A DNA stretch of 46,844 nt from a virus (Duplodnaviria > Heunggongvirae > Uroviricota > Caudoviricetes): the IMG/VR virus record IMGVR_UViG_2534681940_000028; one strand, written 5' to 3'. Position 1 is the stretch's first letter. The number at the start of each line of letters is the position of its first letter. Both the position numbers and the translations under genes were made by a program. Under the pieces are notes generated by a model, which had not been told where the DNA came from, ran no database searches, and saw nothing but the letters and a program-made list of their open reading frames with translations. Positions 280-46,844 of the stretch are shown piece after piece.

Positions 280-337
280 CCCACAGCTTTGCAGAGTGGG
301 CTGTGGGTGATTTCAACAGGCAAAAGGAGACAGTCCT

Positions 338-517
338 TTGCGACAAGTTAACCGCTGGTTCAAAGATCACTACGGAGTGCCCGTCAGAGTCATTCGTTGG
401 GAACCGGAAACACAACGGGTTATCTACCTCCGCGAAGGCTATGAGCATGAGTGCTTCAGCCCGCTCGAACAGTTTCGTCGTAAATTCAGGGAAATAGAGG
501 TCGGTCATGAGCACTAA
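338..517 (+). CDS. small hypothetical protein (59 aa), TTG start
   Basis: AAGGAG at 324-329, TTG at 338; open frame to TAA 515-517; overlaps start of next gene by 11 nt; not in ORF track because non-ATG start. Confidence 0.3.
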
Positions 518-1448: not shown

Positions 1449-1450
1449 GC

Positions 1451-3301: not shown

Positions 3302-3320
3302 TTAAGAGGAGAAACGAAGT

Positions 3321-9330: not shown

Positions 9331-9510
9331 CTTATTATCCTGCATTGTTAAAAACGGCAGAATCCTATGTGACAACAATTAAACGATAGTTAAATGGATT
9401 GATGAAAATTAAAACTATATAGGTGTACGGTCAGACTATTGGAGGTAGTCAGGATTTGAATGTCAGTCTGTTGTCGGCATTCTGGCAATGCAATTTGGAT
9501 AAAGCGGGGA

Positions 9511-23262: not shown

Positions 23263-24338
23263 ACGACAATGTCACGCTACGGGTAAATGGCCGGGAGTGG
23301 AATGGCTGGACATCGGTGCGCATCGGTGCCGGTATTGAACGGCTGGCGCGGGATTTCAGTGTGGAGATCACTCGCCAGTGGCCGGGAGATGAGGGTATCA
23401 CCACGCTTCAGCCGCGCATTAAAAACGGTTCAAAAGTGGAAGTGCTGATTGGTGATGAGCTGGTGATCACCGGCTGGGTGGAGGCGACTCCCGTTCGTTA
23501 CGATGCCCGTTCGGTCAGCACCGGTATTGCCGGACGTAGTCTGACGGCTGACCTGATTGACTGTGCAGCCGAACCGACACAGTTTAACGGACGCTCGCTG
23601 GTGCAGATTGCGCAGGCGCTTGCTGCGCCTTTCGGCATTGAGGTGGTGAACAGCGGTGCGCCGTCGGGTGTTATTCCTGATGTTCAGCCTGATCACGGTG
23701 AAACGGTGATTGAGGTTATCAACAAAATACTCGGTCAGCAGCAGGCGCTGGCTTACGACGATCCGCACGGCAGGCTGGTGATTGGCGGTATTGGCTCAAC
23801 GCGGGCACATACCGCGCTGGTACTTGGGGAAAACATCCTTTCCTGTGATACGGAGAAGAGTATCCGGGAGCGGTTTTCTGTTTACCAGGTGGCGGGGCAG
23901 CGTGCCGGAAACGACGATGATTTCGGTGAGGTCACCACCACCGCGCTGCGGGCCCGCACAGAGGACGCATTTATTGCCCGTTACCGTCCGATGTATATCA
24001 GGCAGACAGGGCAGGCCACGGGGGCAGGCTGTATTGCGCGTGCTGACTTTGAAGCCCGACAACGGGCGGCGCGGACGGATGAAACCACCTATGTGGTGCA
24101 GGGCTGGCGACAGGGTAACGGTACGCTGTGGCAGCCCAACCAGCGGGTGATTGTCTTCGATCCAGTCTGTGGTTTCGACAATACCGAACTGCTTGTCTCG
24201 GAAGTCACGTTTACTCAGGACCAGAACGGCACCCTGACGGAAATCCGTGTCGGCCCGCCTGATGCTTATCTGCCTGAACCCGAAGCCCCCGGCGCGCGGA
24301 AAAAGAAAAAAGCCAGAGTACAGGAGGACCCGTTCTGA
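23259..24338 (+). CDS. baseplate hub protein (Mu gpP / gp44-like)
   Basis: 359 aa; overlapping start/stop with neighbours; baseplate module order. Confidence 0.6.
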   Translation: MNDNVTLRVNGREWNGWTSVRIGAGIERLARDFSVEITRQWPGDEGITTLQPRIKNGSKVEVLIGDELVITGWVEATPVRYDARSVSTGIAGRSLTADLIDCAAEPTQFNGRSLVQIAQALAAPFGIEVVNSGAPSGVIPDVQPDHGETVIEVINKILGQQQALAYDDPHGRLVIGGIGSTRAHTALVLGENILSCDTEKSIRERFSVYQVAGQRAGNDDDFGEVTTTALRARTEDAFIARYRPMYIRQTGQATGAGCIARADFEARQRAARTDETTYVVQGWRQGNGTLWQPNQRVIVFDPVCGFDNTELLVSEVTFTQDQNGTLTEIRVGPPDAYLPEPEAPGARKKKKARVQEDPF

Positions 24339-26934: not shown

Positions 26935-27705
26935 ATGCATCGTATAGACACGAAAACCGCGCAGAAGGATAAGTTCGGCGCGGGTAAGAACGGTTTTACC
27001 CGTGGTAACCCCCAGACCGGCACGCCTGCCACCGATCTGGATGATGACTACTTTGACATGTTGCAGGAGGAACTTTGCAGCGTGGTGGAGGCATCCGGTG
27101 CCAGCCTGGAGAAGGGGCGGCACGACCAGTTACTTACCGCACTTCGCGCGCTGCTGTTAAGCCGCAAGAATCCGTTTGGCGATATCAAATCGGATGGCAC
27201 TGTGCAAACGGCTCTCGAAAACCTTGGTTTGGGAGAAGGCTCTGCATTACCTGTTGGTGTGCCTGTTCCATGGCCTTCAGCCACACCGCCAACAGGCTGG
27301 CTGAAATGCAACGGTGCGGCTTTTTCTGCTGAAGAATACCCGGAACTGGCAAAGGCTTATCCGACAAATAAATTGCCTGATTTACGTGGTGAGTTTATTC
27401 GTGGCTGGGATGACGGGCGCGGTATTGATGCAGGACGTGTTTTATTGAGCATTCAGACAGGGATGCTGGAAAAACACCGCCATATTGTTGTTGCCAATGA
27501 TGGTTACGACACAAAAGATGAATGGGAACTGGCTACGATTTTCAAAAAGACATACACACAAGGACGGGGACTTGATGCCACAAATACAGGAGGGAGTCTG
27601 ATCCCATCACCGACACTTCATTCACGAGGGAGTATCGGTAATACTGGCGGGAGTGAAACCCGTCCACGAAATATTGCATTTAACTATATCGTGAGGGCTG
27701 CATAA
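26935..27705 (+). CDS. tail fibre protein (constant N-terminus + currently expressed variable C-terminus)
   Basis: 256 aa; crossover site lies inside the gene at 27213-27239; Gly-rich fibre-like C-terminus. Confidence 0.7.
27213..27239. repeat. invertase crossover site (left; gix/pix-like)
   Basis: TCGAAAACCTTGGTTTGGGAGAAGG; core TTGGTTTGGGAGAAG is repeated inverted at 29103-29117. Confidence 0.55.
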
Positions 27706-28307
27706 TGGATAACGCCGTATTAAATAGCGAGCTTATTGCCACGAAGGCGGGGAATATTACCGTCTATAACTATGATGGTAAAACTCGGGAATATATTTCT
27801 ACTTCAAATGAATATCTTGCCATTGGTGTCGGTATCCCTGCATATTCCTGTCTGGATGAACCTGGTATACATAAGGCGGGTTATGCTATCTGCCGTTCGA
27901 TGGATTTAAACTCATGGGAATATGTGCCAGACCATCGCGGTGAAATCGTCTATAACACCGAAACGGGAGACGCCAAAGAAATCACAGCTCCGGGTGATTA
28001 TCCTGAAAATACAACCACTATCGCCCCGTTAACGCCATTCGATAAATGGGATGGTGAAAAATGGGTGACAGATACTGAGGCACAACACGGTGCCGCAGTA
28101 GAAGCGGCAGAAGCACAGCGCCAGTCACTGATTGATGCAGCAATGGCTTCCATCAGTCTGATTCAACTGAAATTGCAGGCCGGACGTAAACCGACGCAGG
28201 CAGAAACAACCAGACTTAACGCTGTGCTGGATTACATTGACGCGGTGACGGCAACAGATACCAGCACCGCGCCGGATGTCATCTGGCCTGAACTGCCGGA
28301 GGCGTAG
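27705..28307 (+). CDS. tail fibre assembly protein (current orientation)
   Basis: 200 aa; TAATG overlap with fibre gene. Confidence 0.7.
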   Translation: MDNAVLNSELIATKAGNITVYNYDGKTREYISTSNEYLAIGVGIPAYSCLDEPGIHKAGYAICRSMDLNSWEYVPDHRGEIVYNTETGDAKEITAPGDYPENTTTIAPLTPFDKWDGEKWVTDTEAQHGAAVEAAEAQRQSLIDAAMASISLIQLKLQAGRKPTQAETTRLNAVLDYIDAVTATDTSTAPDVIWPELPEA

Positions 28308-28731
28308 GCCATTCAATATCTGGCGCACTGGAGGTATCAACCAGCTCCAGTGCATCCAGATAATCCAGCCACAAATTATATTGCGCCAGTTCCTCACCTT
28401 TCAGACGACCAATAGCGGCTTTACCGGGCCATTGTTTACTGTTCATGTATTCGTTGGCCTGGTTAATTAGTAGCTGTCTTTCTGATTCAGTAATTTCAAT
28501 AAGTTCTTCATGCGTGGGTGGAGGAATATCTGCCCACGCAGGCAGCCCATCATCTCCGGCAATACGGATTTTTCCTTGTGGCGGTTCAGCCATAAACTCA
28601 CTGATAATATTTTGATTTACTTCCTTAGCGTCTGATAAATCCCATCCCTCTGATTTATATTTATCAATCATATCCACAGGGAAAAAAGCATTATGCCTTG
28701 CGCTATAAACATATTCATTCATATAAATCAC
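28279..28731 (-). CDS. tail fibre assembly protein (alternative orientation)
   Basis: 150 aa on minus strand inside the invertible segment; C-terminus parallels the + strand tfa. Confidence 0.65.
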   Translation of the reverse strand: MIYMNEYVYSARHNAFFPVDMIDKYKSEGWDLSDAKEVNQNIISEFMAEPPQGKIRIAGDDGLPAWADIPPPTHEELIEITESERQLLINQANEYMNSKQWPGKAAIGRLKGEELAQYNLWLDYLDALELVDTSSAPDIEWPTPPAVQAR

Positions 28732-28742
28732 CCTGAATAAAA

Positions 28743-29117
28743 TTACTCACCAACAGCCCACCAACTGTAATTCATCGATACCGTGTCGCTGGTTGATGAC
28801 GTTCTGTAAGCAGAATTAAAGCCGGTTAACGTTGGGCCTTCTGCAGTCATCACGAACCCTCGCCCAGCGCCTAAAGGCGCACCGCCATCACCAGAATGAG
28901 TAAGCATGGCGCAGTCCGCTTTTTTGGAGAAAGGGATGCTGAATGTAATTCTCATTGTTTGCGTCGATAATGTCGGCGTAACCGCACCACGACCATATTG
29001 CAGGATTTTCCCGTTGGGTAATTTCATCCATCCATCACCACTGGCAAAAGAGGCCATGTCCGGTATCTGATTTTCCCCTGTCCCCACATCCCGTTTTGCC
29101 GCTTCTCCCAAACCAAC
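28743..29117 (-). CDS. alternative tail fibre variable C-terminal segment (promoterless until inversion)
   Basis: Minus-strand frame opens at right crossover site; the LNVGLGE junction parallels ENLGLGE in the expressed fibre. Confidence 0.55.
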   Translation of the reverse strand, partial: VGLGEAAKRDVGTGENQIPDMASFASGDGWMKLPNGKILQYGRGAVTPTLSTQTMRITFSIPFSKKADCAMLTHSGDGGAPLGAGRGFVMTAEGPTLTGFNSAYRTSSTSDTVSMNYSWWAVGE

Positions 29118-29126
29118 GTTTAAGAA
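29092..29126. repeat. invertase crossover site (right; gix/pix-like)
   Basis: Inverted copy CTTCTCCCAAACCAA of the left-site core. Confidence 0.55.
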
Positions 29127-29183
29127 AATGCAGAGATTATGGCTAACTGGCATCATCCCCGGTTTTTACTCAGGGGAATGCTC

Positions 29184-30667
<1,484 letters not shown>

Positions 30668-32180: not shown

Positions 32181-32546
32181 TTAAGTTAACGTTACCCGCT
32201 GACGTCGATATTCTCGCGGAGAGCGATAACCCAACGCACTGTGCGGATGGTTTTCATTGTAATGTTCGATCGCCACTGCAAGATTATGCAATGCCGTTCT
32301 TACATTCGGTTTCGGCATGAACGCGATATAGTCTTCCTTCATCGTTTTCACGAACCTTTCTGCAATTCCATTACTCTGAGGACTGCTGATTGCCGTTGTG
32401 CAGGGCTCCAGATTCAACTCTCTGGCGAACTGCCGTGTTTCATGCGCTCTATACGCTGAACCGTTATCTGTCAGCCACTGGATGGACTGTTCCGGTACTT
32501 TATCGCCAAAGCGTTTTTCTATCGCTCCTAACATGACATCCTGCAC
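32181..32546 (-). pseudogene. IS3-family transposase OrfB C-terminal fragment (IS2-like)
   Basis: 121-aa minus-strand ORF with DDE-region tail ...[19 protein letters not shown]...[17 protein letters not shown]; upstream part of the transposase is absent or frame-broken. Confidence 0.6.
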
Positions 32547-32893
32547 TGTCGCTTTATCGTAACCTCCCGTGCTTGCGGCCCAGTCTATGGCTTCACGATC
32601 GCAACAGTCCAGGGCGATTCATCTGGGCCAATCCTCGCTCATAACAGGCATTCACTTCAGTCATGGCAGAAAGGTATGCATGCTGGAGAAGTCGTGAAAG
32701 AAAAGAAGACTGCTGCGCCGTTTGTCGTCACGTTTATCTTCATTGGCTATGCAAGTCGTAATACAAGGTGGGACAAAACTGAGACACATAAGGCCTCGCA
32801 ATGGCTTGCAAGGCTTTACATGTTTTGATGTGGTGGGACGTGTGAGCGCAGTGTTGATGGGGTAATGCTTTGAATTAGAAGCGGATTCTTATA

Positions 32894-32939
32894 ATTCGTA
32901 ATGCGAAGGTCGTAGGTTCGACTCCTATTATCGGCACCA
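32894..32939 (+). other. 3' 46 nt of a tRNA-Thr(CGU) gene (thrW-like); att site of the P4-like element
   Basis: ATTCGTAATGCGAAGGTCGTAGGTTCGACTCCTATTATCGGCACCA: anticodon CGT, T-arm GTAGG-TTCGACT-CCTAT, acceptor strand, CCA; 5' half missing. Confidence 0.65.
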
Positions 32940-33101
32940 TCTCAACTTCCTCAAACGTCCGTATTAGTCCATAAAATCTCTGATTTATAACATTTTTTAT
33001 TCTTTTAAGTCCATAGTAGTCCGTAACCATCCAGTAGAATCCGGTACTGAATGTGTATAGGATTGTGTATATGTTCCTGTTCGGTCTGGATTCCTATACA
33101 C

Positions 33102-34283
33102 ATGCCTTTAAACGATATGCAGATTCGCCGCGCTAAGCCTGAAGCTAAAGCCTATACATTTGGAGATGGGCTAGGGTTGTCATTACTTATAGAACCTAAT
33201 GGAAGCAAGAGTTGGCGGTTCCGCTATCGCTATGCCGGCAAACCCAAAATGATCTCGCTTGGTGTTTACCCAACGATCACCCTTGCCGATGCTCGTTCCC
33301 GTCGTGATGAAGCTCGAAAACTTGTGGCAGAAGGAAAGAACCCTAGTGAGGTTCGAAAAGAGCAAAAGCTAGCTATGCAAACAGAGTCAGAGAACGCCTT
33401 CGAAAAGATAGCCAGAGAGTGGCATCAACTTAAATCTGCTAAATGGTCGGCGGGATATGCATCAGACATCATGGAAGCGTTTAAGAACGACATTTTTCCT
33501 TATGTCGGAACAAGGCCTGTGGGAGAGATTAAACCGCTAGAGCTGCTGAACGTTCTGCGTAAAATTGAGAAACGTGGTGCGTTGGAGAAAATGCGCAAAG
33601 TGCGGCAGCGTTGCTCCGAAGTGTTTCGCTACGCAATTGCAACGGGTAGGGCGGAGTACAATCCTGCGGCTGATCTCTCCAGCGCTCTCGAAGTACACCA
33701 ATCCAATCATTTCCCATTCCTAAAAGCTGATGAGATACCTGATTTTCTACGTGCCTTAGAGGGTTACTCCGGGAGTAAGCTTGTCCAGATAGCCACGAAA
33801 TTACTGATGATTACGGGTGTGAGAACCATCGAATTACGCGCGGCATTATGGCAAGAATTTGATCTGGATAACGCTATTTGGGAAATTCCTGCTGAAAGGA
33901 TGAAAATGCGTAGGCCACATCTTGTGCCCTTATCATCTCAAGCGGTAGATTTACTCAATGAACTCAAGATCATGACAGGGAACTATCGTTATGTTTTTCC
34001 AGGGCGGAACGATCCGAATAGGCCAATGAGCGAAGCGAGTATAAATCAAGCCATTAAGCGTATTGGGTATGGAGGAAAAGTCACTGGACATGGTTTTCGT
34101 CATACCCTTTCTACAATCCTGCATGAGCAAGGTTTTGAGAGTGCTTGGATTGAAATCCAGTTGGCTCATGTAGATAAAAATTCTATTAGGGGGACTTATA
34201 ACCATGCTCAATATTTTAGTGGAAGGAAGTCTATGATGGACTGGTACAGTAATTTGATATTTGAAAGACTAAAAAGGAGTTAA
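33102..34283 (+). CDS. tyrosine integrase (P4-like)
   Basis: 393 aa from ATG 33102; N-terminal arm-binding region MQIRRAKPEAKAYTFGDGLGLSLLIEPNGSKSWRFRYRYAGK; C-terminal R...HxxR...Y catalytic region; directly downstream of tRNA fragment. Confidence 0.85.
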   Translation: MPLNDMQIRRAKPEAKAYTFGDGLGLSLLIEPNGSKSWRFRYRYAGKPKMISLGVYPTITLADARSRRDEARKLVAEGKNPSEVRKEQKLAMQTESENAFEKIAREWHQLKSAKWSAGYASDIMEAFKNDIFPYVGTRPVGEIKPLELLNVLRKIEKRGALEKMRKVRQRCSEVFRYAIATGRAEYNPAADLSSALEVHQSNHFPFLKADEIPDFLRALEGYSGSKLVQIATKLLMITGVRTIELRAALWQEFDLDNAIWEIPAERMKMRRPHLVPLSSQAVDLLNELKIMTGNYRYVFPGRNDPNRPMSEASINQAIKRIGYGGKVTGHGFRHTLSTILHEQGFESAWIEIQLAHVDKNSIRGTYNHAQYFSGRKSMMDWYSNLIFERLKRS

Positions 34284-34286
34284 TTT

Positions 34287-35290
34287 GTGTCTCAACCACT
34301 TTCGGAAATATTGACATGGGATGATGAACAATGGGAGGTATTTGTCCATGATTGGCTTATTGTCTGTAAATCAGATGATTACCCGTGGAGCGAACGTTTG
34401 GGAGGAGCTGGAGATAAAGGTAGAGACGTTGTTGGATATAAATCGGATCCTAACGTAGAAGGTTATTCTTGGGATAATTATCAATGCAAACTGTACAAAA
34501 AAAGTTTAGGGTTCTCTGATGTTGTAGTTGAGTTTGGAAAACTTATCTATTTTACTCTGAATGGTGATTATCCCATCCCTCAGAAGTACTTTTTTGTGGC
34601 ACCCTATGATTTATCTACTACATTTTCTAATTTATTGAAAAATAAAAACGAGCTTAAAAAAGCAGTCCTTGATTCATGGGATTCAGCAATTTCAAAAAAT
34701 AACTAAAAAGATTGATATTCCATTAGATGATGAAATAAAAAATATATTGAGGATTTTGATTTTAGTATTTTTTACTCTCTACCCTTATCATTGATTTTAA
34801 ATGATATTGCAAATACACACCTTTATTTTAAGTACTTTAACGAGCTGTATGTCGTGAGAATCCCTCCAAATGAAATTCCAACATACAATTCAAAAAAGAG
34901 TCTGTATATGTTAATGCACTGCTTCAAGCCTATTCAGAGCATGGAAATAAAACTTATAGTTCTTTCTTAGAGCTTGATGATCCATACAGACGACACTTTA
35001 ATAATAGTAGAAATGATTTTTATTTTGCATCTTCGCTTGAGGTTTTTGTCCGCGAAGTATTTAAAGATGATGTATTCAAAGCATTGAAATGTTACATTTC
35101 ATCTTCAATTGAACCCGTCTTTTATGAAGACCATAATTATGCATTTATTAGGTGTAATGCAGTCTTGAAGCAGGCTGTTCTGACACCAATTGCACATTCA
35201 GTACTATCAAAAATATGTGAAGCAAATGATAAAAAAGGAATATGCCATCATTTGGTTAATGATGGTGAAGTAATTTGGACGGTGAGATAA
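34287..35290 (+). pseudogene. Lamassu/ABC-3C-like effector with N-terminal Mrr-type restriction-endonuclease domain, frameshift-disrupted
   Basis: First 139 aa intact with GAGDKGRDVVGY...YQCKLY (Mrr-cat-like); coding continues in at least three other frames to 35290. Confidence 0.4.
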
Positions 35291-35748
35291 TGGTTAGAAT
35301 TTATAATTCAAGTTTAGAAGTGGCATGTCGAATGGCGAAAGTGCTCGTCGCTATTTATCCTTCTTCATTAAGCCTTGAACGGCTTATTTGTTTTGATTTT
35401 ATTTTAGTAAATCTTAAGGATTTTTTACCTGAAGAGATTAGTCTTCATCCTCCAATACCCCGTAGAGATGCTCAGTTAGCCCTAAAACGAGAGATTGTTT
35501 TAGAATCATTGGCTTTGTTGCAAGGCTATGAACTAGCCTCAAAAATTTATACACATCGTGGTTTTGTATATAAAGCTTCTGAAAAAACATATGCATTTAC
35601 AAATTCTCTACATAATGAATATGTTGCGCAGATGGAGCATAATATAAATTTGGTGGTTAAGTTATATAGTGATATTCCTGATGAGCAGTTGCAATCAATT
35701 ATAAAAAATAAAATTGGCAAATATGATATGGAATTTAATTATGAATGA
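35290..35748 (+). CDS. small middle-component protein of the three-gene cassette
   Basis: 152 aa from ATG 35290 (TTG 35275 alternative); start overlaps upstream stop, stop overlaps downstream ATG (ATGAATGA). Confidence 0.4.
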   Translation: MVRIYNSSLEVACRMAKVLVAIYPSSLSLERLICFDFILVNLKDFLPEEISLHPPIPRRDAQLALKREIVLESLALLQGYELASKIYTHRGFVYKASEKTYAFTNSLHNEYVAQMEHNINLVVKLYSDIPDEQLQSIIKNKIGKYDMEFNYE

Positions 35749-37557
35749 CAATTTTTTTACGTTCAGAAAAATAAAGGTAACCGGATTCAATAAATTAGAT
35801 GCTATAATTGAATTTGGTTCTAAATTGACTATTTTATATGGTGGTTCTGACTCTGGAAAAACATACATATATTATTTGATTCGATATTTATTAGGGAGTG
35901 AAAAACTAAAAATAAAGATATCGATCATGCTCAAGGTTATGATTTAGCCTATCTGGAATTTAATTTTCAAGGTAGGGTAATGACAATTGAGAGGTCTCTT
36001 CAGGATAGCGCCCATTACAGATTATATGATTCGAGCATTGAAAATGTTAGTGAAGCTAATCTGTTGATGGTTTTTTCCAAAAGTGCTTCGTCTAAAAAGA
36101 GTTTTTCATCATACTTTTATGGTAGGTTGAATTTCAAAGAGGCTAAAGTAAGAACAAACTTAAGTAATACTCTTCATAAATTTAATCTTAATAATGTTTT
36201 TGAATTTTTTGTATTGATGAATTAAGAGTGTTAACTGAGAAGTCGTTAATTCTTTCTGATATTCCTAGCGAGGAGACAAAAAGAAAGTCTGAATTTAAAT
36301 TCCTTTTAACTCAGAGAGATGATACTAACTCCTTAGCAGAAAAACCAAATAAAAAAGCAAGATATTTTTAAAAAAATCAAATTGCAAATATTTATGAGGA
36401 ATTGAAAGCGCAATTAATTTATCCTGAATATGATCAAGTCATTGTTTCAAGAGAACTTGAGAAAGTAGAGCAAGATATTGAATCATCGAAAGATATATTG
36501 AAAGGTATTGTTGATGCACTTGATGATAAGAAGCAATTATTAAAAGAGTTAAGTGATGAATTATATTCAATCAGTGACAGGGAAAAATACTTATCATTAC
36601 TCATTGAAAGATTTAGTCTTCTTAAAGACCAATACTTTATAGATCTACAAAGAATAGATGTTGTATCACAGGCGAATTTCTATTTAAATAATTTTGCAGA
36701 TATTTATTGTGAGTTCTGTAATACACCGCAAAAAAAGAAAATGAAATATCATATGATGATTGTTTTTTGTCGTGTAATGCAGAAAAATTGAAAATCAAAA
36801 GCCAGCTGAAAGGATTAATTGAATCAATCGGATCTAATGTTCGCGAACATGAATTAATTATGTTAAGAAAAAATGATGTTAATGAAATTTATCAATCAGA
36901 AAAAAGTGATTTTAAGACGTTAGAAGATAAAAATATAAAACAATACATTCATCTCTTGAATCACTTTATGAATATAAAGACAATCTTTTAATGGATCACA
37001 CAAAACATAGCATTCTATCTTCATTACAAGATAAAGAAGATGATGTTGACGAACTTAAATACTCCGCCGAGGACTTTGACTCCTTAACAGTAGCTGATTT
37101 GTATGATATAGAAATAGCGATGCAAGACTTTTTGAATGATATAAATTTTGAAAATTCTAAAGATAACAAAGTGCGATTTGACGAAGATACATATGACTTT
37201 AATATCAATGGGAAACGCCGAGGAATGTTTGGTAAAGGTACCCGTGCAGTAATGCATGCTATATTTACCATTTGCTTTGCGGAATTTTTATCAAGAAAAG
37301 GGAATCCATTCATTGGATTTGTTGTGCTTGATAGTCCATTAGTGACGCACTTTGATAAAGATAGAGGGGGTTCTCTATCGGATGTTAATAGCGTCAGTCT
37401 CAGTGATTCATTTTATCACGCATTAATCAAAAGGGACTATAATTTCCAGATTGTAATTCTTGAGAATAAAGGTCCGACGTTCCAAATAAAAATTAATGAT
37501 GCAAATAAAATCCATAACTTAAATAAGAATGGAAGCTCTGGTTTTTATCCTGTTTAA
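35741..37557 (+). pseudogene. SMC-like ABC ATPase (LmuB-like), frameshift-disrupted
   Basis: N-terminal Walker A GGSDSGKT; middle coiled-coil pieces; C-terminal Walker B-like IGFVVLDSPL; split over five ORF fragments in different frames. Confidence 0.5.
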
Positions 37558-37966
37558 TACATTAAAAATATAACTGCTAATTGGGGTGCTCGAAATTATA
37601 TTTCGTTTCGAGCGCTCAGTTCATTTCTAAATAATTTGCAAAATTATTTTGGGTACTTTCGCCTCTACACTTCCTTCGGGTGGTTCCACAATAATGGATC
37701 TCACCGGCGTTTGATATTTTATAATCTAACCCCTTAGCGCGCGCAGCCCCCCACGCCTGCTCGCTTCGCTTAACAGACTGGTTTTCATGCATTCCGCAAA
37801 TCGTCTCAGAAGCCACCACACAAGGGCTTTCGCGTCAAAAATGGTGCATGAGAATCATGCGTTTTCATGCGCTATAGACATGCACTCATGCGCTCTCAGG
37901 CCAGCCAGGGAAAAGGCGTAAAAAATCCCAGTACTGGACCGGGATTACGTGGGCTTTTTTTGCTAA

Positions 37967-38239
37967 TCAGACAGGAATTTGCTGACGGCTTGACAGCTTT
38001 GACGCGGAGCCATAGCGATTGAGAGTTTGCTGTTGTTTTTCCGGCATTTGTGCTTTCTCTGATTCCTGTTCATTGCGCCGGGGCTTCATGATTATCGTAT
38101 CCACACTTTCCAGTGCGGTAAATGTGTAGGAACATTCAAGATTCTGGCACTGATACCATGAGCGTTTAACCGATGGTGCTTCATAGGCGGAGGTTCTGGC
38201 GTGTGCCGTCGTACCGCATTCGGGACATTTAAGTGCCAT
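37967..38239 (-). CDS. Ogr/Delta-family zinc-finger late transcription activator
   Basis: 90 aa; CPECGTTAHARTS...YQCQNLECSYTF four-Cys motif as in P2 Ogr / P4 Delta. Confidence 0.75.
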   Translation of the reverse strand: MALKCPECGTTAHARTSAYEAPSVKRSWYQCQNLECSYTFTALESVDTIIMKPRRNEQESEKAQMPEKQQQTLNRYGSASKLSSRQQIPV

Positions 38240-38244
38240 TAATA

Positions 38245-38796
38245 TTACTCCTGCATGCCGTTAATGTAATCCAGACGTTGCTGAAAGCGCAGTTGTTGTG
38301 CAGGGGTGTAAGAGCTCTGGCAATCACGAACCATCATGGGGTCAGGCATCACACCGGATTCATCCAGAATCATACGATAATCCCCGGCAATTTCAGGCGG
38401 TGTTATTGCCAGCTGGCGAACCAGAGCATTGCGTAATATACGGGACGCAACGTCAACCCCTCCGCGCCCCTTCAGGAACGGAGCCAGTGCAGATGTCAGG
38501 GCTGCTCCATTCGCCTGCATAAAATTGCTGAGAGCGTCTTCTGTGCAGGCCTCCATCAGTTGATGCTGCGAGTAAATGCATTCGCGCGCAGCACAGTTAA
38601 TTTGCCATTTCAGCACATCCAGATGTTCCCGCTGTAATTCGAGCTGTCGAGCATAATCTGCTGGTTTTTCCATGGCAGTGAGGAGTGATTCTATCTGTTG
38701 TTCAACGGCTTTTCGGCTCTCACTATGTCCAGCCCACAGAATACGGGCATTTCTAAAACTGATAAGCGCTTGGTCTGGAGTGACTCGGGCCATCAT
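38245..38796 (-). CDS. Psu-like polarity suppression / capsid decoration protein
   Basis: 183 aa; size and motifs (ANGAALTSALAP, TPAQ) resemble P4 Psu as I recall it; gene order sid-psu-delta. Confidence 0.55.
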   Translation of the reverse strand: MMARVTPDQALISFRNARILWAGHSESRKAVEQQIESLLTAMEKPADYARQLELQREHLDVLKWQINCAARECIYSQHQLMEACTEDALSNFMQANGAALTSALAPFLKGRGGVDVASRILRNALVRQLAITPPEIAGDYRMILDESGVMPDPMMVRDCQSSYTPAQQLRFQQRLDYINGMQE

Positions 38797-39545
38797 ACTG
38801 CTTTCTCCTTCTCAGCACGTTCCTGACGAACCTTCATTTTATGCATAGCTGCTGGAGAGAGTTTATTACTGAAATCCAGACGGGCCGCATAATCCGGGGC
38901 AACTCCCGCCAGTTTAAACACGGGGTCCTGTTCGGGCATCGCATCGTTAGTCAGAGCCGGTCTGGTGATATGTTTATGAATAAAATCTTTCAGCAGTGTG
39001 TCCGGGTCATTAACTGAATGCACCACACCGACAACTGCGCTGGCTTCCCTGCCCATTGTTGATTTGAGCAGGCTTAGTGTCTGGATTAGTGCTTTTCCAT
39101 GCGACTGCATAAAATCTTCCCAGATTTGTTTTGCGCGAATACCCACAAGGGTGTCGTGCGCGTGGATATACTTTCCGGCTAATTCCGCAGCCTCCTGCGG
39201 CAAAAGTGCATTTTCGCTTTCCTGAGCCGCCAGCAGCTCATCAAAATCCTCAAGCGTTTCTCGTCCCAGCGCAATTTCCGTGCGCAGTTTTTTCATTTCC
39301 TTTGAGACTACGCCCTGACTTTCACGAAATAGCGTGCGCCACTCCTCATTCAGGGCGTTCGTCGTGGCTTCCATTTCAGCGCGGCGCTGGCGGATTGTCG
39401 CAATATTATCCGCTGCCGCTTTTTGCTGACGACGTGCTTCAAGCCATGCAGATTTGGTGGCATTCACTTTCTCAAGCGCCTGTTGCGTCGAAACAGGGAT
39501 AGAAATTTCAACGATCGGGTTATTGTTCTGTTCTGGGATTGTCAT
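38793..39545 (-). CDS. Sid-like capsid size determination protein
   Basis: 250-aa alpha-helical, charged protein at head of the sid-psu-delta operon; assignment by position and composition. Confidence 0.45.
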   Translation of the reverse strand: MTIPEQNNNPIVEISIPVSTQQALEKVNATKSAWLEARRQQKAAADNIATIRQRRAEMEATTNALNEEWRTLFRESQGVVSKEMKKLRTEIALGRETLEDFDELLAAQESENALLPQEAAELAGKYIHAHDTLVGIRAKQIWEDFMQSHGKALIQTLSLLKSTMGREASAVVGVVHSVNDPDTLLKDFIHKHITRPALTNDAMPEQDPVFKLAGVAPDYAARLDFSNKLSPAAMHKMKVRQERAEKEKAV

Positions 39546-40477
39546 GTCAGCACCTAGTGGTTTGTCGTGGTGTCAATTGTGCTGTGATGCATACAAAGCT
39601 GCCATTGAACGCCATTGTGCGAGCGACAAGACAAAGACTGAACCGCCCCGGACCTCTTTTGGCTAGCCAGAAAAGGCCTCGTTTAACTAAGGCTGTTTCA
39701 GACTTACCTTAACTATTCACTACTATTCACTTAGGTAAAAAAATAGGTAATACAGAAGGTTATAAGGTGAAGGGTTGGCATGGCAGTATTCATCGACTGT
39801 TCATAACTGTTCACATGGGAATAAAATTATTTATGGTATTTTTTCATAATGGGTGGTTTTTTTATTCCTCGTAGCTATTTGTTTTTTGCTCCTCACCACT
39901 ATTCACCCTTATTCAGGAGTATTCAACAGGCACATAAATAGACTGCATGTTTTTGCCGGGGAATAACATTTTCGCCTCTGGCCATGGTGTTGCATTTCAT
40001 ACTGATTTTTATAAAACTAGATCTGTCCGGTTCTTTATGGATTCATTCGGATATATTTTACGATTTAAGGTGATGTTATTTAATATCAAGGTTTTTATGC
40101 AGGCCCAATGTTTATAAGTTGGATGCGATTCAAAAATATGCCCGGAAATTGGGGCCTGCAATGCAAGGCCTCGTGTAGAAGTTGTACTGCCTTGCTGTAT
40201 TGGCGGTGGGGTTAGCACTATCAGGTGCAATGACCCATAGGATAGTAAACCCTGGGTGAATGGTAGTTCCTATTAATGCTCCTGTATTTATAGTCCGCAG
40301 GCATGGTATTTATTATGTCATTTTATATGGTTTAATCGGGCTTTAAATTCCATAAAATCAATATGTGACGCTAAATAAAAAATGCGTGCGCAGGTGGTTT
40401 ATATACACATAATAAGGAACTACCTGAACCCGGATAAATTCATCCGGACTGTTGTGGAAATTAAAGAGGGTAGATAA

Positions 40478-40738
40478 ATGCGTAATATTTCTGTGTCTGC
40501 GCCAGCTCCTGCTGCGCCATTATTTCCTGTATCGAACCATCATGAGCGATTTTTACGCCTGCCTGAGGTGATGCACTTATGCGGGTTGTCCCGTTCGACC
40601 GTTTACGACCTGATCAGCCGCGATGCGTTTCCGAAGCAGATCCCGCTTGGCGGTAAAAATGTCGCCTGGGCACAGTCTGAGGTCAGCGCATGGATGGCGG
40701 ACCGCATCAGCGCCCGTGGGCGGGGATGTGATGCATGA
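40478..40738 (+). CDS. AlpA-family regulator / excisionase-like HTH protein
   Basis: 86 aa; [40 protein letters not shown] matches AlpA/Vis-type HTH. Confidence 0.6.
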
Positions 40739-41292
40739 TGATACCTGCATACATTAAATACCTTTATTCTGGCTTGCTTACTGTCGTCATTTCCAGGTAT
40801 AGTTTTTCCGCTGTCGCAAAATCGGCAGCCGGAATTGGCGTTCCGTATAACTTATTGGCGACAATTGACGCCCCTTGCGTCTTTTTTTACGTCGTAGCTC
40901 AGGCACAACCATTTTCAGGGCTGTGGTGTTTATGCTTACACCATGGTTCTATCGAGATAATGGTAGTCCGGGCGGGGCAGCCTTCGGGCTGGCCGGTTTC
41001 CAATAAGGCCGGTTACGCCAACCCCGTTCGGGCTGCCACCAGTGAAATTGGCGTTTCCGGTGGTAGCAATAACCGCTACTTATTGGAGGCTGCCATCATG
41101 GCTACAATCCTCACCCCGTCACACCCGCAATATGTCTTTGTGTTTGCCGCAATCCGCCGTGCTGACACTCACCCCCGCATCTGTATGCTTCGCACTGTCT
41201 CCTGCGATGAGCGTTCCGCGCGCCGTTTGCTAGTCCGAGATTATGTACTCTCCCTTTCTGCACGGCTGCCTGCCGGGGAGGTGACGCTATGA
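40735..41292 (+). CDS. hypothetical protein (true start possibly ATG 41098, giving 64 aa)
   Basis: ORF-track frame; 5' two-thirds overlaps a GC-rich repeated-hairpin region and may be non-coding; GGAGG precedes ATG 41098. Confidence 0.3.
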
Positions 41293-41510
41293 ACCAGTTT
41301 GAGATTTCCTACGACGATGTTGTAAGGCTGAAACATTTACGCAATGTGGGTGAGTATGTAACTGGCATGGCAGCCCTGCAGGACTGTTATGAAAAGCCAG
41401 CAGGTGCCCAATGCGAACAACTGGTTTCCCTCATTTATCTGATGACAGAGCAACTGGATGGAGTGGTGCAACGCTGCCATGACGACCTGATGAATGCGGA
41501 GGTGGCCTGA
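41289..41510 (+). CDS. hypothetical protein (73 aa)
   Basis: ORF with start overlapping upstream stop; operon position upstream of primase. Confidence 0.4.
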
Positions 41511-41833
41511 TGATATGCTGTGAATCTCTTCTGGCACTTCGTGCCGCTCTGTATCGCCGTGCCGTTGCCTGTGCCTGGCTGGCTCTAAGCAATCATCAGG
41601 AACGTTATTCCGGCCTGACGCTCGCTGAACTTGAAGATGCCATAGCCCGCGAGCTGGAAGGGTTCTATCTGCGCCAGCATGGGCAGCAAAGAGGGCTGGA
41701 AATTGCCTGCGCGTTGCTTTCGGATCTGATGGAGTCGGGGCCGCTTAAAGCCTGTCCGGTTCTCTCACTGCTCGGAATGACGGTCATGGATGAACTTTGT
41801 TCCCGTCACCTCAACAAACCAGCGCTGCACTAA
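41510..41833 (+). CDS. hypothetical protein (107 aa)
   Basis: ORF with ATGA-type overlap; operon position upstream of primase. Confidence 0.4.
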
Positions 41834-41846
41834 GGAGGGCCGCACA

Positions 41847-44180
41847 ATGTCAGGAATGAAAGTTAGCCAGGCTGAGAAAGCAGCTCGGGGTCACTGGTCA
41901 AGAATTTTACCTGCGCTGGGCGTAAATGTACTGAAAAATCGGCACCAGCCCTGCCCGGTCTGTGCCGGGAAAGACCGCTTTCGATTTGATGACCAGGAAG
42001 GGCGGGGAACGTGGTTCTGTAACCAGTGCGGGGCAGGTGATGGCCTGGCGCTTGTAAGTAAAGTACTGGATGTAGGCATTAGTGAAGCGGCAGACAGAAT
42101 AAACGGCATTATCGGAAACCTGCTGCCAGTATCTCAGGGAATGCTTGAATCTGGTTCTCCTGAAAAAGAGGACGGGAGAAAAGCTGCAGCAGTGCTGGCT
42201 GCCCGTTTGTTTGATAAGTCCCGCCAGACCACTGGCAATGCCTATCTGACGAGTAAAGGGTTTCCTGCACTGCCTTGCCGGGAATTAACCGCTATGCATA
42301 AAGTCGGTGGTGTGGCATTTCGCGCGGGAGATCTTGTCGTTCCATTGTATGCAGATGGAGAGCTGGTAAATCTGCAGTTAATCAACGCTAATGGGGGCAA
42401 ATGCTTCCTTAAAGGCGGTCAGGTTAAGAATGCCTTTTACCTGGTTGAAGGTACTGCCAAAGCAGCCAAACGGCTCTGGATAGCGGAAGGATATGCCACC
42501 GCACTTACTATCAACTATCTGACTGGCGATGCTGTCATGGTGGCCTTTTCGTCCGTCAATTTCCTTTCCCTGGCGAGCATTGCCTGCAGTGAGTACCCAA
42601 CGCACCAGATAATTATTGCTGCTGACCGCGATCTCAACGGTGCGGGGCAAACAAGGGGCGCAGCTGTTACCGGGGCCTGCAATTGCACAATGGCGCTCCC
42701 GCCTGTGTTTGGTGACTGGAACGATGCATTCACGCAAAACGGCGAAGAAGCCACCCGGCATGCAATTCATGAAGTAATAAAACCAGCTGTTGCCAGCCCC
42801 TTCGACACAATGAGCGAAGCTGAATTTACCGCGCTGAGCGTCAGCGAAAAAGCGCAGAGGGTAGTGGATCACTATAAAAATTCACTGGCAGTAGACCCGA
42901 ACGGGCAGCTCCTTTCACGCTATGAGGCGGGGGCCTGGAAAGTTATCTATTACGCCGATTTTGCCCGTGATGTCGCTGCGCTGTTTCAGCGCCTCGACGC
43001 ACCTTTTTCATCCGCGAAAATTGCGTCTCTCGTGGAAACCCTCAAACTGATCGTTCCGCAACAGCAGAATCCGGCGCGGCAACTTATCGGATTTCGCAAC
43101 GGTGTGCTCGATACCCGGACAGGATTGTTCAGCCCGCACGATAAGAAGCACTGGTTACGTACGCTGTGCGAGGTGGATTACACGCAGCCCGTTGACGGTG
43201 AGTCACTGGAAACCCATGCCCCGGCATTCTGGCGCTGGCTGGATCGTGCCGCAGGTTTTAATCCTGAAAAACGGGACATTATTCTGGCTGCATTGTTTAT
43301 GGTGCTGGCTAACCGTTATGACTGGCAGCTGTTTCTGGAGGTCACTGGCCCTGGCGGAAGTGGAAAGAGTATTCTTGCTGAAATAGCAACCATGCTGGCG
43401 GGTGAAGATAACGCGACCTCGGCAACCATTGAAATGCTTGAGTCGCCAAGAGAACGAGCTGCGTTAATAGGTTTTTCACTGATTCGACTTCCCGACCAGG
43501 AAAAGTGGAGCGGTGACGGGGCCGGACTAAAAGCCATCACTGGCGGCGATGCGGTATCCGTTGATCCCAAATATCAGAACGCCTATTCAACCCACATCCC
43601 GGCGGTCATCCTGGCTGTGAACAATAATCCGATGCGCTTCACTGATCGTAGTGGTGGAGTTTCACGCCGAAGGGTGATCCTGCATTTCCCCGACCAGATA
43701 GCCCCGGAGGAACGCGATACCCAGCTCAAAGAGAAAATTGCCAGTGAGCTAGCGGTGATTGTTCGCCAGCTTATGCAGCGTTTCAGCGACCCAATGAGTG
43801 CCAGGACATTGCTTCAGTCACAGCAGAACTCCGATGAAGCGCTCACCATCAAACGTGATGCTGATTCAGCTTTTGATTTTTGCGGCTACCTTGAGGTCCT
43901 ACCTGACACCACGGGCATGTTTATGGGGAACGCTAATATTGTTCCACGTCAGCCTCGAACTTACCTCTACCATGCCTATCTGGTCTACATGGAGGCTAAC
44001 GGCTATAAAAATACGCTCAGTCTGACCATGTTTGGCAAGGGGCTACCGTTAATGCTCAAGGAATATGGGCTGCAGTATGAGAAACGACGGACCAATCAAG
44101 GAATGCAGACTAATCTGGCCCTAAGAGAGGAAAGCAATGCTGACTGGTTGCCAAAATGCGATGAGTTTGCAGCGAAATAA
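41847..44180 (+). CDS. P4 alpha-type primase-helicase (zinc-binding + TOPRIM + D5-like helicase domains)
   Basis: 777 aa from ATG 41847 with TAAGGAGG upstream; N-terminal CPVC...CNQCG zinc motif; Walker A TGPGGSGKS. Confidence 0.8.
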   Translation: MSGMKVSQAEKAARGHWSRILPALGVNVLKNRHQPCPVCAGKDRFRFDDQEGRGTWFCNQCGAGDGLALVSKVLDVGISEAADRINGIIGNLLPVSQGMLESGSPEKEDGRKAAAVLAARLFDKSRQTTGNAYLTSKGFPALPCRELTAMHKVGGVAFRAGDLVVPLYADGELVNLQLINANGGKCFLKGGQVKNAFYLVEGTAKAAKRLWIAEGYATALTINYLTGDAVMVAFSSVNFLSLASIACSEYPTHQIIIAADRDLNGAGQTRGAAVTGACNCTMALPPVFGDWNDAFTQNGEEATRHAIHEVIKPAVASPFDTMSEAEFTALSVSEKAQRVVDHYKNSLAVDPNGQLLSRYEAGAWKVIYYADFARDVAALFQRLDAPFSSAKIASLVETLKLIVPQQQNPARQLIGFRNGVLDTRTGLFSPHDKKHWLRTLCEVDYTQPVDGESLETHAPAFWRWLDRAAGFNPEKRDIILAALFMVLANRYDWQLFLEVTGPGGSGKSILAEIATMLAGEDNATSATIEMLESPRERAALIGFSLIRLPDQEKWSGDGAGLKAITGGDAVSVDPKYQNAYSTHIPAVILAVNNNPMRFTDRSGGVSRRRVILHFPDQIAPEERDTQLKEKIASELAVIVRQLMQRFSDPMSARTLLQSQQNSDEALTIKRDADSAFDFCGYLEVLPDTTGMFMGNANIVPRQPRTYLYHAYLVYMEANGYKNTLSLTMFGKGLPLMLKEYGLQYEKRRTNQGMQTNLALREESNADWLPKCDEFAAK

Positions 44181-44186
44181 CTGACC

Positions 44187-44209
44187 TAAGACCGGCTGTG
44201 CCGGTCTTA
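44187..44209. terminator. hairpin between convergent primase and orphan gene (terminator-like, no U-tract)
   Basis: 9-bp stem TAAGACCGG / CCGGTCTTA with CTGTG loop. Confidence 0.3.
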
Positions 44210-44312
44210 AATCCGCTACAGGAAATTATCTCAAAATATATATCGATAAAATTTAAAAGTTATATGCTAAGGCGTCAGCGGAAAATGCATCTAATTCATT
44301 GTTAGATGATGT

Positions 44313-45269
44313 TTATTTTTGAATTGATTTAAACATCCCATCGAGTTGTAATTTATTTATGTCGGTTTTCTTTATGGCTTTAATTAAGTTTTCAATAACT
44401 TCCAAAGAAAAAATTACATCTTTCTTTTCAATTCTAACCCCCCCGTGGTGGCTGCAAGCATTAAGGATGTCCTTTGTAATTTCAACATCATTTTTCATTA
44501 ATGGTTCATAGTCCAGAGCCTCAATAACAGAAACTAAACTACCTAGCATTTGCTCTTGGTATTGAACGTTGTTTAAATGCATTATACGAATATTAACAAG
44601 CATGAGAATATATTCTAAATATCTCCTGGCAGTATTTCCTTTCTCTTGTAAAGAATCACGATCATATTCCTCAATACTCATGACTTCATTATGTAAAGAG
44701 GCTATTTTGTGCTCTGCTAATGAAATATTTATCGCATCCATGAGGTTTCGTGAGAAGCCTGTAGATGTAACATGACCATTTGCGGGCCTTGTTAAAATAC
44801 ATGTAGTATAGCAATTTATATTTGGGGTCTGGATTGTCTCATTTACTCTTTTAACCGTTCTATAAACGTCTACCATATAAGAACCTGAGTTTTCAAATGA
44901 ACATGAAGAGCATTTTGTATTATATATTCTATTTAGAGATAACTGATTGTGATAGTATCCCTTTAAGAAAGCATATATAGTGTCATTAAACTCGACAAAC
45001 ACAACGGACTCAATATATATATGGAATTTATCATTGGGGTGCCACTCTAATTCAAGTCTTCTTGTAGAGTCATCAAAGGAAAAGTTTGAAATAAAATCCC
45101 AGTTACCTAAATCTATAAAATCAACGATATTTCTACCTGCACCATGGATATTTTTATTTATTAAAGTTGTGATTGAGTTTTTTATAATGTCCCAATCATG
45201 AATTTCATGATCGAATTTATTATTGATGGTTTCTTTTATTTGATTGGAAAAGTTTGAATAACTAGTCAC
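44313..45269 (-). CDS. AT-rich hypothetical protein (318 aa), orphan cargo at right end of satellite
   Basis: Long intact minus-strand ORF in strongly AT-rich DNA; no confident family match by eye; C-terminal RRYLEYIL...NACSHHGG region weakly HEPN-like. Confidence 0.55.
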   Translation of the reverse strand: MTSYSNFSNQIKETINNKFDHEIHDWDIIKNSITTLINKNIHGAGRNIVDFIDLGNWDFISNFSFDDSTRRLELEWHPNDKFHIYIESVVFVEFNDTIYAFLKGYYHNQLSLNRIYNTKCSSCSFENSGSYMVDVYRTVKRVNETIQTPNINCYTTCILTRPANGHVTSTGFSRNLMDAINISLAEHKIASLHNEVMSIEEYDRDSLQEKGNTARRYLEYILMLVNIRIMHLNNVQYQEQMLGSLVSVIEALDYEPLMKNDVEITKDILNACSHHGGVRIEKKDVIFSLEVIENLIKAIKKTDINKLQLDGMFKSIQK

Positions 45270-45801
45270 TTGTTAGCCTCAAAATTAATAATGAGTATTA
45301 AAATTTAATTGATATTGTCTATAAAATGTAGCGATGCAATTTTATTGCAACGAAATGATTTTTACAACATACCATTATCGCTAAACAAAATCGCACCCAT
45401 CAAATCAACTTACGTTACAATCACTACAAAGCGATTGCATTTAAATTCAAAACAGTTTTCTGTTGGGCGCATTTTTTGTTGTACTGGACTAAAGAGAAAA
45501 AATGGGGTAAGGAACAAATACCTTCCGTGCTCAAAAATTAGGTTTTTATGCACTTATTAATCAGTCAAGGTGAACAGTAAAGTGTTCACTTCTTATCAAT
45601 CGTTAATTTCATATCTTTTTGAATATTAATGAAAAAAAACACAATGAGTAGTATGAACAGTTTTCCCCCAAAAAAAGTTTTTTCTGCCTTGAGAATGCGC
45701 GGAAAGCGAACGCCTTCACCAATGTGTATAGGGGTGTGTGTAGTTTAAATCTTCTATTTTAATTTATGTATTAAAATCATTGTGTTGGTGGCGATTATTG
45801 G

Positions 45802-45818
45802 TTCCTATTATCGCACCA
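45802..45818 (+). repeat. degenerate direct repeat of the tRNA-Thr 3' end (presumptive attR of the satellite)
   Basis: TTCCTATTATCGCACCA versus CTCCTATTATCGGCACCA at 32922-32939. Confidence 0.4.
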
Positions 45819-45944
45819 TTTAAATCAAGTAGTTACCCCATATTTAAATACACCACGTTTCCTCCTGTGCCGCATTTGTGCCATTGTAACCCTGGCAATT
45901 AATCAAAATACTGTTCTGACATCAGGCAATGCAGGTGCAGACAT

Positions 45945-46844
45945 TTAAGCCAATTGCTGCCGCCATTCCTTAACGTGGTCAATCAGAGCGCGGAGCTTTG
46001 GTGCAATATTGCGACGCTGTGGGAAATACAGATAGAAGCCCGGAAATTGTGGAAGAAAGTCATCAAGCAGAGATACAAGCTTACCGCTTTCAATATACGG
46101 CCTGAAAGTTTCCTGAGTGGCAATTGTTATTCCTCCGCCGGCAAGAGCCAGCCTCAACATCAGACGCAGATCATTAGTCGTAATCTGCGGTTCAATCGCA
46201 AGGTCGAAAGCTCTCCCGTTTTCTTCAAATGGCCAGCGATAAGGCGCAACCTCCGGGGACTGACGCCAGCCGATACACTTATGATTCACAAGTTCACGCG
46301 GATGAACAGGTGTGCTGTTGGCTGCGAGATAGGAGGGAGAGGCAACGACCATTTCACGCTGCCTGCCGGTAAGGGGCACAGCAATCATGTCTTTTTCAAT
46401 GACCTCTCCGAGCCTTACGCCAGCATCGTAACCTGCGGCCACGATATCGAATTCCTCATCCGTGACAACAATATCAAGCGTAACGGCTGGATTGGCTGCT
46501 GCAAACGAAGCGATTAGCGGACCTGAAAGAAATTCTTCAGCTATTGACGTCACCGCGATTCTGAGAAGTCCGCGTGGCACATGGTCAGAAACCATCTCTT
46601 CGAACGCTGCCTCAATACCGGATAAAGGTAATGACAGCGATTTATGCAGCCGTTCTCCCGCTTCTGTCAAATTAACTGAGCGCGTGGTCCGCATTACAAG
46701 CATTGTCCCGAATGCATCTTCAAGGCGTCTTATTCCCTGACTGACCGCTGAACGGGTAACGCCCAGCCGTGCGGCGGCTTTACTAAAATTACTCTCTTCT
46801 GCTACCGCGATAAAAATGGGTAAAAGATTAAGATCGATTTTCAT
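45945..46844 (-). CDS. LysR-family transcriptional regulator
   Basis: 299 aa; N-terminal LysR HTH (LNLLPIFIAVAEESNFSKAAARLGVTRSAVSQGIRRLE); start codon at window edge 46844-46842. Confidence 0.8.
   Translation of the reverse strand: MKIDLNLLPIFIAVAEESNFSKAAARLGVTRSAVSQGIRRLEDAFGTMLVMRTTRSVNLTEAGERLHKSLSLPLSGIEAAFEEMVSDHVPRGLLRIAVTSIAEEFLSGPLIASFAAANPAVTLDIVVTDEEFDIVAAGYDAGVRLGEVIEKDMIAVPLTGRQREMVVASPSYLAANSTPVHPRELVNHKCIGWRQSPEVAPYRWPFEENGRAFDLAIEPQITTNDLRLMLRLALAGGGITIATQETFRPYIESGKLVSLLDDFLPQFPGFYLYFPQRRNIAPKLRALIDHVKEWRQQLA

Follow-up and report, generated by a model that had tools for sequence, protein, structure and literature searches.

How does a P4-like satellite come to lie beside only the 3′ 46 nucleotides (nt) of a tRNA gene? 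The question is raised by a Caudoviricetes record of IMG/VR, IMGVR_UViG_2534681940_000028, the whole 46,844-nt stretch of which we call the window: positions 32894–45818 hold an element that begins with a piece of tRNA-Thr(CGU) followed by a P4-type integrase gene, and that ends with an imperfect copy of the last 17 nt of the same tRNA. A reading made from the letters of the window (hereafter the sequence-only reading) had offered two explanations for the missing 5′ half, namely tandem integrations or a deletion mediated by an insertion sequence (IS), a fragment of which lies upstream. Our comparisons support the former, through a match to the attP of Shigella phage SfIV and through the empty and ancestral forms of the site, and speak against the latter. 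Two elements that target the 3′ end of thrW very probably stand here in tandem, the 46-nt piece being the attachment (att) copy made by the second integration. The satellite is Sp2 of Escherichia coli O157:H7 Sakai, which we take to be the same element as CP-933I in EDL933.

Neither the element nor its tandem arrangement is new, as annotations and publications already cover both. The Sakai record (NC_002695) lists “prophage Sp1” (300042–310627) and “prophage Sp2, P4-like phage” (310628–323514) back to back at thrW, and the boundaries of Sp2 coincide exactly with the two repeats, the feature ending directly before the attR core. The satellite of the window shares with Sakai Sp2 the gene order, the 17-nt and 16-nt boundary repeats, the upstream 46-nt junction and an ISEc48 fragment; it differs in that the partner upstream of it is an SfIV-like prophage of nearly full length, such as strains FRIK944 and MA11 have, and not the 10.6-kb remnant Sp1, and in that the window copy carries additional homopolymer indels. 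The location of Sp1 and Sp2 at thrW has been reported, as has a “compound prophage” at this site in another O157:H7 strain (PMC8190617). Asadulghani et al. described Sp2 as P4-like, scored its int, xis and replication functions as conserved, and recorded no circularisation of Sp2 in Sakai (PMC2669165, Table 2); we equate the xis function with the Vis/AlpA-type regulator described below.

Two attachment sites at one junction

A search of the whole window with ARAGORN found no tRNA gene. Positions 32894–32939 (plus strand), ATTCGTAATGCGAAGGTCGTAGGTTCGACTCCTATTATCGGCACCA, match the 3′ end of the tRNA-Thr(CGU) gene thrW of E. coli O157:H7 FRIK944 and MA11 at 46 of 46 positions, which bears out the left boundary and the tRNA assignment of the sequence-only reading; the piece comprises tRNA nt 31–76, and its first base is the last one ahead of the anticodon loop.

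The DNA around this piece is that of a phage attachment site. Window positions 32769–32940 (172 nt) are 98.3% identical to positions 23073–23244 of SfIV, which lie between gtrA and int, and the order in the SfIV genome is P arm, the same 46 nt, P′ arm and int. The P arm of the window (32769–32893, plus strand) forms the right end of an upstream prophage with an HK97-type head and a Mu-type tail; next to the 46-nt core it is identical to SfIV at 59 of 60 nt, and homology to phage phi458 begins at about 32632. The attP of SfIV at thrW is 46 bp long, the same as in SfI and SfV (PMC3851460), and the 46-bp thrW core is common to SfII, SfX and P22 (PMC3851460, PMC3636060). The other end of such a prophage can be followed in FRIK944, to which window positions 279–46844 are 99.93–99.97% identical, and in MA11, which likewise matches the window at 99.9%: intact thrW lies downstream of proA and is followed by an SfIV-type P′ arm and integrase, and 38.2 kb of HK97-type head/Mu-type tail prophage stand between the intact thrW and the 46-nt copy. 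Because the piece matches the SfIV attP and the intact thrW with its P′ arm stands at the other end of the prophage in these two genomes, the 46 nt serve both as the attR core of that prophage and as the attL of the satellite. The truncation would have been contradicted by an intact tRNA directly upstream; taken literally, there is none, and in near-identical genomes the gene lies one prophage length away.

The core of the satellite attL is the last 17 nt of the piece (32923–32939, TCCTATTATCGGCACCA); the P′ or int-proximal arm follows at 32940–33101 (plus strand), and the same sequence follows intact thrW in DEC5A, 493/89, 2571 and F6321. At the other end of the satellite, the attR core (45803–45818, plus strand) reads TCCTATTATCGCACCA, that is, the 17-nt tRNA end minus one G, just as the sequence-only reading had it; alignment of the repeats and a shuffled control agree on this, as the 17-mer occurs at an edit distance of at most 1 at two sites only in the window, compared with ~0.003 per shuffled window. 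The right-hand repeat is the exact point where native chromosome resumes, the thrW-distal flank with the LysR-family gene yagP on the minus strand (45819–46844), which is contiguous with thrW in genomes whose site is empty.

We searched complete E. coli genomes with two synthetic queries. The first, proA-thrW joined to the window from 45819 onward, represents the empty site and matched 948 genomes end to end at ~99%; in strain 88-3493, for example, thrW, which has GG, runs straight into TTTAAATCAAGTAGTTACCCC... and the LysR gene. As these genomes join thrW to the flank at 45819, all DNA between thrW and 45818 is inserted. The second query, intact thrW joined to the P′ arm of the satellite, recovered 120 genomes in which the satellite stands directly beside an intact thrW, at 100% in O157 493/89, 2571, F6321 and CEC13002 and at 99.8% in O55:H7 DEC5A. 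Over 13.96 kb, the satellite of DEC5A matches the window at 99.7% identity, flanked by intact thrW on one side and by the same single-G repeat on the other. O157:H7 is accepted to descend from the O55:H7 lineage, and strain 493/89 belongs to the early-branching sorbitol-fermenting clone. In O157:H7 LSU61, the same satellite lies behind a different, CP4-6-like island, and a 46-nt copy again marks the junction.

Order of the two integrations

We propose that Sp2, the P4-like satellite, first entered thrW by way of a short core consisting of the final ~17 nt of the tRNA, to give the arrangement thrW-int...alpha-TCCTATTATCGCACCA-yagP, as in O55:H7 DEC5A and O157 493/89. An SfIV-like temperate phage would later have entered the same, still intact, thrW by means of an integrase with a 46-bp core, and this core would have been duplicated; the intact tRNA would then stand at the far-left end of the phage, and the second 46-nt copy, together with the phage P arm, at its right end against the int arm of the satellite. 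No deletion was involved in producing the “5′-truncated tRNA”. An order with the satellite first and the second element later is the most parsimonious one, because the satellite is constant and the upstream occupant varies, as the comparison of FRIK944 and MA11, LSU61, DEC5A and 493/89 illustrates. A partial tRNA beside an integrase gene is thus to be expected from a second integration in the same tRNA and is not a mark of damage, and the length of the partial tRNA identifies the att core of the second element (46 bp, i.e. the SfIV/P22 type).

The same end product would result if the SfIV-like phage had integrated first and the satellite had then used the phage attR, the 46-nt copy of which contains the 17-nt core, as a secondary attB; Sp10 and Rac provide a documented case in which the attR of a resident prophage was used in this way (PMC2669165). 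We nevertheless regard this order as very unlikely: DEC5A and 493/89 carry a satellite of 99.7–100% identity at an intact thrW with no phage, and in LSU61 the same satellite stands behind another island, so that the satellite is again the constant partner and the upstream occupant the variable one. Several points weigh against our preferred order and against its application to the source strain: the final structure fits phage-first integration equally well; precise excision of the phage would also recreate the arrangement that we call ancestral, so that the order rests on parsimony; the window itself starts in a copy of IS629/IS1203, with intact thrW outside it; the matching attL (thrW, P′ arm and integrase) was seen in FRIK944 and MA11, at a position outside the window and in strains other than the source; and the left arm of the prophage, together with thrW, could have been removed or rearranged in the source strain.

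The IS fragment to which the sequence-only reading pointed is present, ~280 nt ahead of the tRNA piece: a partial IS3-family transposase gene (32181–32615, minus strand) that the NCBI Prokaryotic Genome Annotation Pipeline (PGAP) labels “integrase core domain, partial” in FRIK944, that matches PHROG transposases, and that is entered in the Sakai record as a repeat_region, “ISEc48 Family: IS3 partial”. Its proximity could suggest that an IS-mediated deletion removed the 5′ 30 nt from a thrW gene once intact beside the satellite. Such an event is next to impossible to reconcile with the sequence between the two: the fragment belongs to the cargo region of the prophage and ends ~260–280 nt from the tRNA piece, the DNA between them is phage attP arm, the tRNA sequence breaks off at precisely the boundary of the published 46-bp phage att core, and LSU61 shows this 46-nt junction too, without an IS in its vicinity. 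We reject the deletion, since the DNA to the left of the tRNA piece is an intact SfIV-type attP arm.

Further observations concern the elements that occupy this site. The upstream slot of LSU61 (locus L005, 4519–5838) holds a CP4-6/CP4-57-like island with CbtA/YeeU toxin–antitoxin genes and an integrase gene at the right end of the island; a CP4-6-like island likewise occupies the downstream slot in strain G47-1. CP4-6 of E. coli K-12 is presumably integrated at thrW as well and leaves a partial thrW pseudo-copy, ptwF, at its far end, but it is, as we understand it, a different element with a different integrase. Sakai Sp1 and the FRIK944 prophage have the right end in common, from the tail fibre to attR, whereas the left arm of Sp1 (locus L142, 4043–5048; an intD pseudogene and lambda-like CI, Cro, O and P) is unlike that of the FRIK944 prophage (locus L002, 12061 onward); since the left arms differ and the right end is common, Sp1 is a mosaic or deletion derivative and no simple truncation. 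Sp2 and its tandem arrangement are in themselves of little consequence, as both are annotated in the Sakai reference genome and discussed in the literature, and the arrangement is an ordinary one.

The single-G repeat at the right boundary

The right-hand repeat carries a single G in all 343 genomes that hold the junction, and a “restored” version occurs in none of them; the missing G is therefore not an assembly artefact. The description of the repeat as “one-base-deleted” in the sequence-only reading is thus accurate as to its letters, but the gap is not a decay mutation private to this element, as it recurs in independent satellites of the same integrase family. The single-G core stands beside unrelated P arms at the right end of the independent E. 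coli thrW satellites of 2017.06.05CC, 65COLEC and AR_0019, and it is also found in a degraded array of HCM-25C-3 and at satellite–satellite junctions in three IMG/VR contigs. A 16-mer scan of GTDB genomes returned mostly chance matches in unrelated phyla, and we used the Enterobacterales loci alone: here the core lies downstream of P4-type alpha genes in Enterobacter sp., Citrobacter amalonaticus, Citrobacter sp. and Kosakonia quasisacchari. Among five E. coli satellites sampled regardless of their attR, four have a single G and one (G47-1) has GG; the left (tRNA) copy has GG in every case.

The simplest reading of this distribution is that the attP of this family of thrW-targeting P4-type integrases usually carries a single G, and that strand exchange takes place to the right of that G. 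The only identity to the right of the single G is GCACCAT, which would place the crossover in the last ~7 bp; 7 bp is a typical overlap length for tyrosine recombinases. An exchange within these bases would rebuild the tRNA intact and would leave the satellite variant in attR, so that the single-G attR most likely derives from the attP of the satellite itself. The imperfect repeat would then be a trait that recurs across the family and marks where the crossover probably takes place.

The gap could instead have arisen by decay after integration, locking Sp2 in place and explaining why it does not circularise in Sakai (PMC2669165, Table 2). Its fixation in all genomes with the junction, and the GG of the related satellite G47-1, are both compatible with such decay; we consider it unlikely, given that the same single-G core stands next to unrelated P arms in most of the sampled E. 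coli satellites as well as in Enterobacter, Citrobacter and Kosakonia, and that identical deletions would hardly recur. If the single G belongs to the attP, the imperfect repeat says nothing on decay. Two results run counter to an attP origin of the single G: the GG core of G47-1, by which the single G is predominant and not universal, and the absence from IMG/VR of a free attP in which the single-G core is joined to the satellite P′ arm. Three IMG/VR candidates for such an attP were in fact tandem arrays with a thrW copy upstream of them and not circles, and a match in the phage database (OR845657) was chromosomal proA-thrW-int contamination. The G47-1 satellite (locus L139, 27591) carries SIR2 cargo, and its GG right-hand core is followed by the CP4-6-like island mentioned above; its P arm is very similar to the one in Citrobacter sp. 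Cu233 (locus L120), where the core has a single G, and G or GG therefore varies between close relatives.

A full-length thrW with a single G occurs in three species-representative genomes: Citrobacter murliniae (locus L028, 3760–3833), a Buttiauxella metagenome-assembled genome (locus L037, 2064–2137) and Klebsiella spallanzanii (locus L040, 3076–3149). The acceptor stem is damaged in these genes, because the 3′ strand TATCGCACCA stands opposite 5′ GCCGATA; the C. murliniae site otherwise looks empty. Such genes may be the scar of a misplaced satellite exchange, and the single-G core may thus explain the occasional damaged thrW gene in other enterobacteria. We lean slightly towards the combined view, in which TCCTATTATCGCACCA would be built into the attP of thrW-targeting P4-type integrases, exchange would be confined to GCACCAT, and a misplaced crossover or repeat-mediated loss would occasionally damage the chromosomal thrW.

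Gene content, candidate helper and neighbouring sequences

P4-like satellites have been defined by seven core components (Moura de Sousa and Rocha 2021, PMC8628076), and the element carries all seven, i.e. int, psu, delta, sid, alpA, Ash and alpha, along with a C4/CI immunity RNA, in keeping with the P4-like assignment of the sequence-only reading. The integrase open reading frame (ORF; 33102–34283, plus strand; open from 33051) encodes a P4-type tyrosine integrase of 393 aa (intS, ECs_0289, in Sakai) with Pfam domains Arm-DNA-bind_3, Phage_int_M and Phage_integrase and 38% identity to P4 Int (E = 1e-99). Next comes a defence hotspot (34287–37557, plus strand) with a decayed Lamassu system of the ABC-three-component type, in which LmuA is in two pieces, followed by LmuC, and LmuB is in at least two. 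PADLOC matches for LmuA, LmuC and LmuB were obtained on the LSU61 copies, each spanning part of the profile only. The splits in LmuA and LmuB are already present in O55:H7 DEC5A and LSU61, and ECs_0293 of Sakai is annotated as a pseudogene; homopolymer indels break the Lamassu ORFs further in the window.

The late operon, on the minus strand, has the three genes that the sequence-only reading had named: delta (37967–38239) encodes a 90-aa single-domain zinc-finger late activator (Pfam Ogr_Delta, E = 1e-16); psu (38245–38796) encodes the polarity suppression and capsid decoration protein (Pfam Psu, E = 4.8e-42); and sid (38793–39545) encodes a capsid size determination protein with 23% full-length identity to P4 Sid (E = 5e-12) and a match to phrog_6165 (E = 5e-96), annotated in Sakai as “phage capsid size determining protein”. 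PGAP gives the Sid homologue the name “septation initiation protein” in many RefSeq genomes, apparently an error of name propagation.

The right half of the element holds regulation and replication genes, all on the plus strand. An alpA/vis-type helix-turn-helix gene (40478–40738; Pfam Phage_AlpA, E = 1.2e-19) for excision and regulation precedes an Ash-family ORF (40735–41292; Pfam Phage_ASH, E = 4.8e-30) that overlaps the immunity RNAs, satisfies the “epsilon/Ash” component in the profile sense of PMC8628076, and lies in a region with 69% DNA identity to P4 8180–8961. BLASTP found no homologue of P4 epsilon, including in a comparison of the neighbouring 73-aa ORF with that protein. The P4-type RNA immunity region (40797–41043) consists of the c4-a1b1 target/isrK (40797–40887) and the C4 (CI) antisense RNA (40956–41043); the Rfam scores are 71.9 bits for isrK (gathering score 50) and 84 bits for C4 (gathering score 45). 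The conserved 73-aa ORF (phrog_10110) and a DUF5375 ORF, a homologue of P4 ORF106, follow at 41289–41833, and the primase-helicase gene alpha lies at 41847–44180 (Pfam Zn_Ribbon_Prim, Toprim_3, D5_N, DUF5906 and Pox_D5), with 72% DNA identity to P4 alpha. A 318-aa ORF (44313–45269, minus strand) in the variable stretch that separates alpha from attR gave no match in profile searches of Pfam, PADLOC, NCBIfam and PHROGs; other thrW satellites have a different gene, of ~365 aa, at this position, which looks like a second variable cargo site. One further IMG/VR copy of the satellite, in the record 2923272612_000005 (locus L012), has the segment corresponding to 37801–41718 deleted, and with it the delta/psu/sid operon and the immunity region.

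Compared with P4 (NC_001609), the satellite has the same seven core components, C4/CI immunity, a tRNA 3′-end target with int beside the tRNA, and a hotspot of variable content that separates int from the late operon. The two differ in their target (thrW vs. leuX), in the order of the late operon (sid-psu-delta vs. sid-delta-psu), in the form of Delta (90-aa single-domain Ogr-like vs. 166 aa) and in the cargo of the hotspot (a decayed Lamassu vs. gop/beta/cII).

A P2-like helper, rather than the co-resident HK97/Mu-type prophage, would be a plausible and reasonable expectation at the level of the family, as the sequence-only reading proposed. A TGT-N12-ACA dyad, the arrangement of Ogr/Delta-activated late promoters, lies at 39616–39633, ~80 nt upstream of the sid ATG, and is a candidate late promoter element responsive to Ogr/Delta; with ten occurrences in the window the motif has low information content, and its position alone is suggestive. 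The satellite has no DNA in common with the neighbouring prophage (blastn, word size 11), which gives no sign that it borrows the packaging site of that prophage; this and the dyad upstream of sid lend some support to a P2-like helper.

The packaging site of the satellite itself is doubtful. The canonical P2/P4 cos 18-mer is absent from the satellite at up to 3 mismatches. A degenerate cos-like motif, GGCGTGGGGGGCTGCGCGCGC (37737–37757, minus strand), aligns by eye to the P4 cohesive end GGCGAGGCGGGGAAAGCACCGCGCGC with ~4 bases missing, and it lies at the position of cos in P4, between the hotspot and the late operon; its function is doubtful. This 21-mer was found in IMG/VR only in copies of Sp2 itself and in no helper-type phage of INPHARED or IMG/VR, the spacer between the hotspot and delta had no match in INPHARED, and the clustering of the P4 ori/crr octamer GGTGAACA was not significant. 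The sole P2-like prophage of Sakai, Sp13, is without most morphogenesis genes (PMC2669165). With a doubtful cos and the published failure to circularise, the satellite may be stranded.

Two features of the window concern its assembly and its source. Relative to FRIK944, it is without single bases in eight A/T homopolymers (29838, 34694, 34737, 34892, 35908, 36205, 36730 and 39737); these deletions, which break several satellite ORFs, are probably assembly errors. Positions 1–278 are the end of the IS629/IS1203 copy, which meets the SfIV-like prophage at a point flanked by ymfL and a DUF4222 gene. None of 5,426 complete E. coli genomes has this junction (278|279); the exact strain is therefore absent from that set, and the junction is a strain-specific insertion or an IS-mediated deletion.

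The upstream prophage resembles SfV and SfIV in its HK97 head and Mu-like tail modules and in the 46-nt core and P arm that match the SfIV attP, and differs from SfIV in having a GIY-YIG protein, an AraC regulator and the IS fragment in place of the gtr genes beside attP. Within a baseplate gene, which PGAP marks as frameshifted in FRIK944, 16 nt of the window (23490–23505) are without a FRIK944 counterpart. The prophage also has a Pin-type invertase with an invertible tail-fibre segment, and an iss/bor-like lipoprotein gene; together with the GIY-YIG protein and the AraC regulator, these lie at ~27700–30600 and ~9037–9378.

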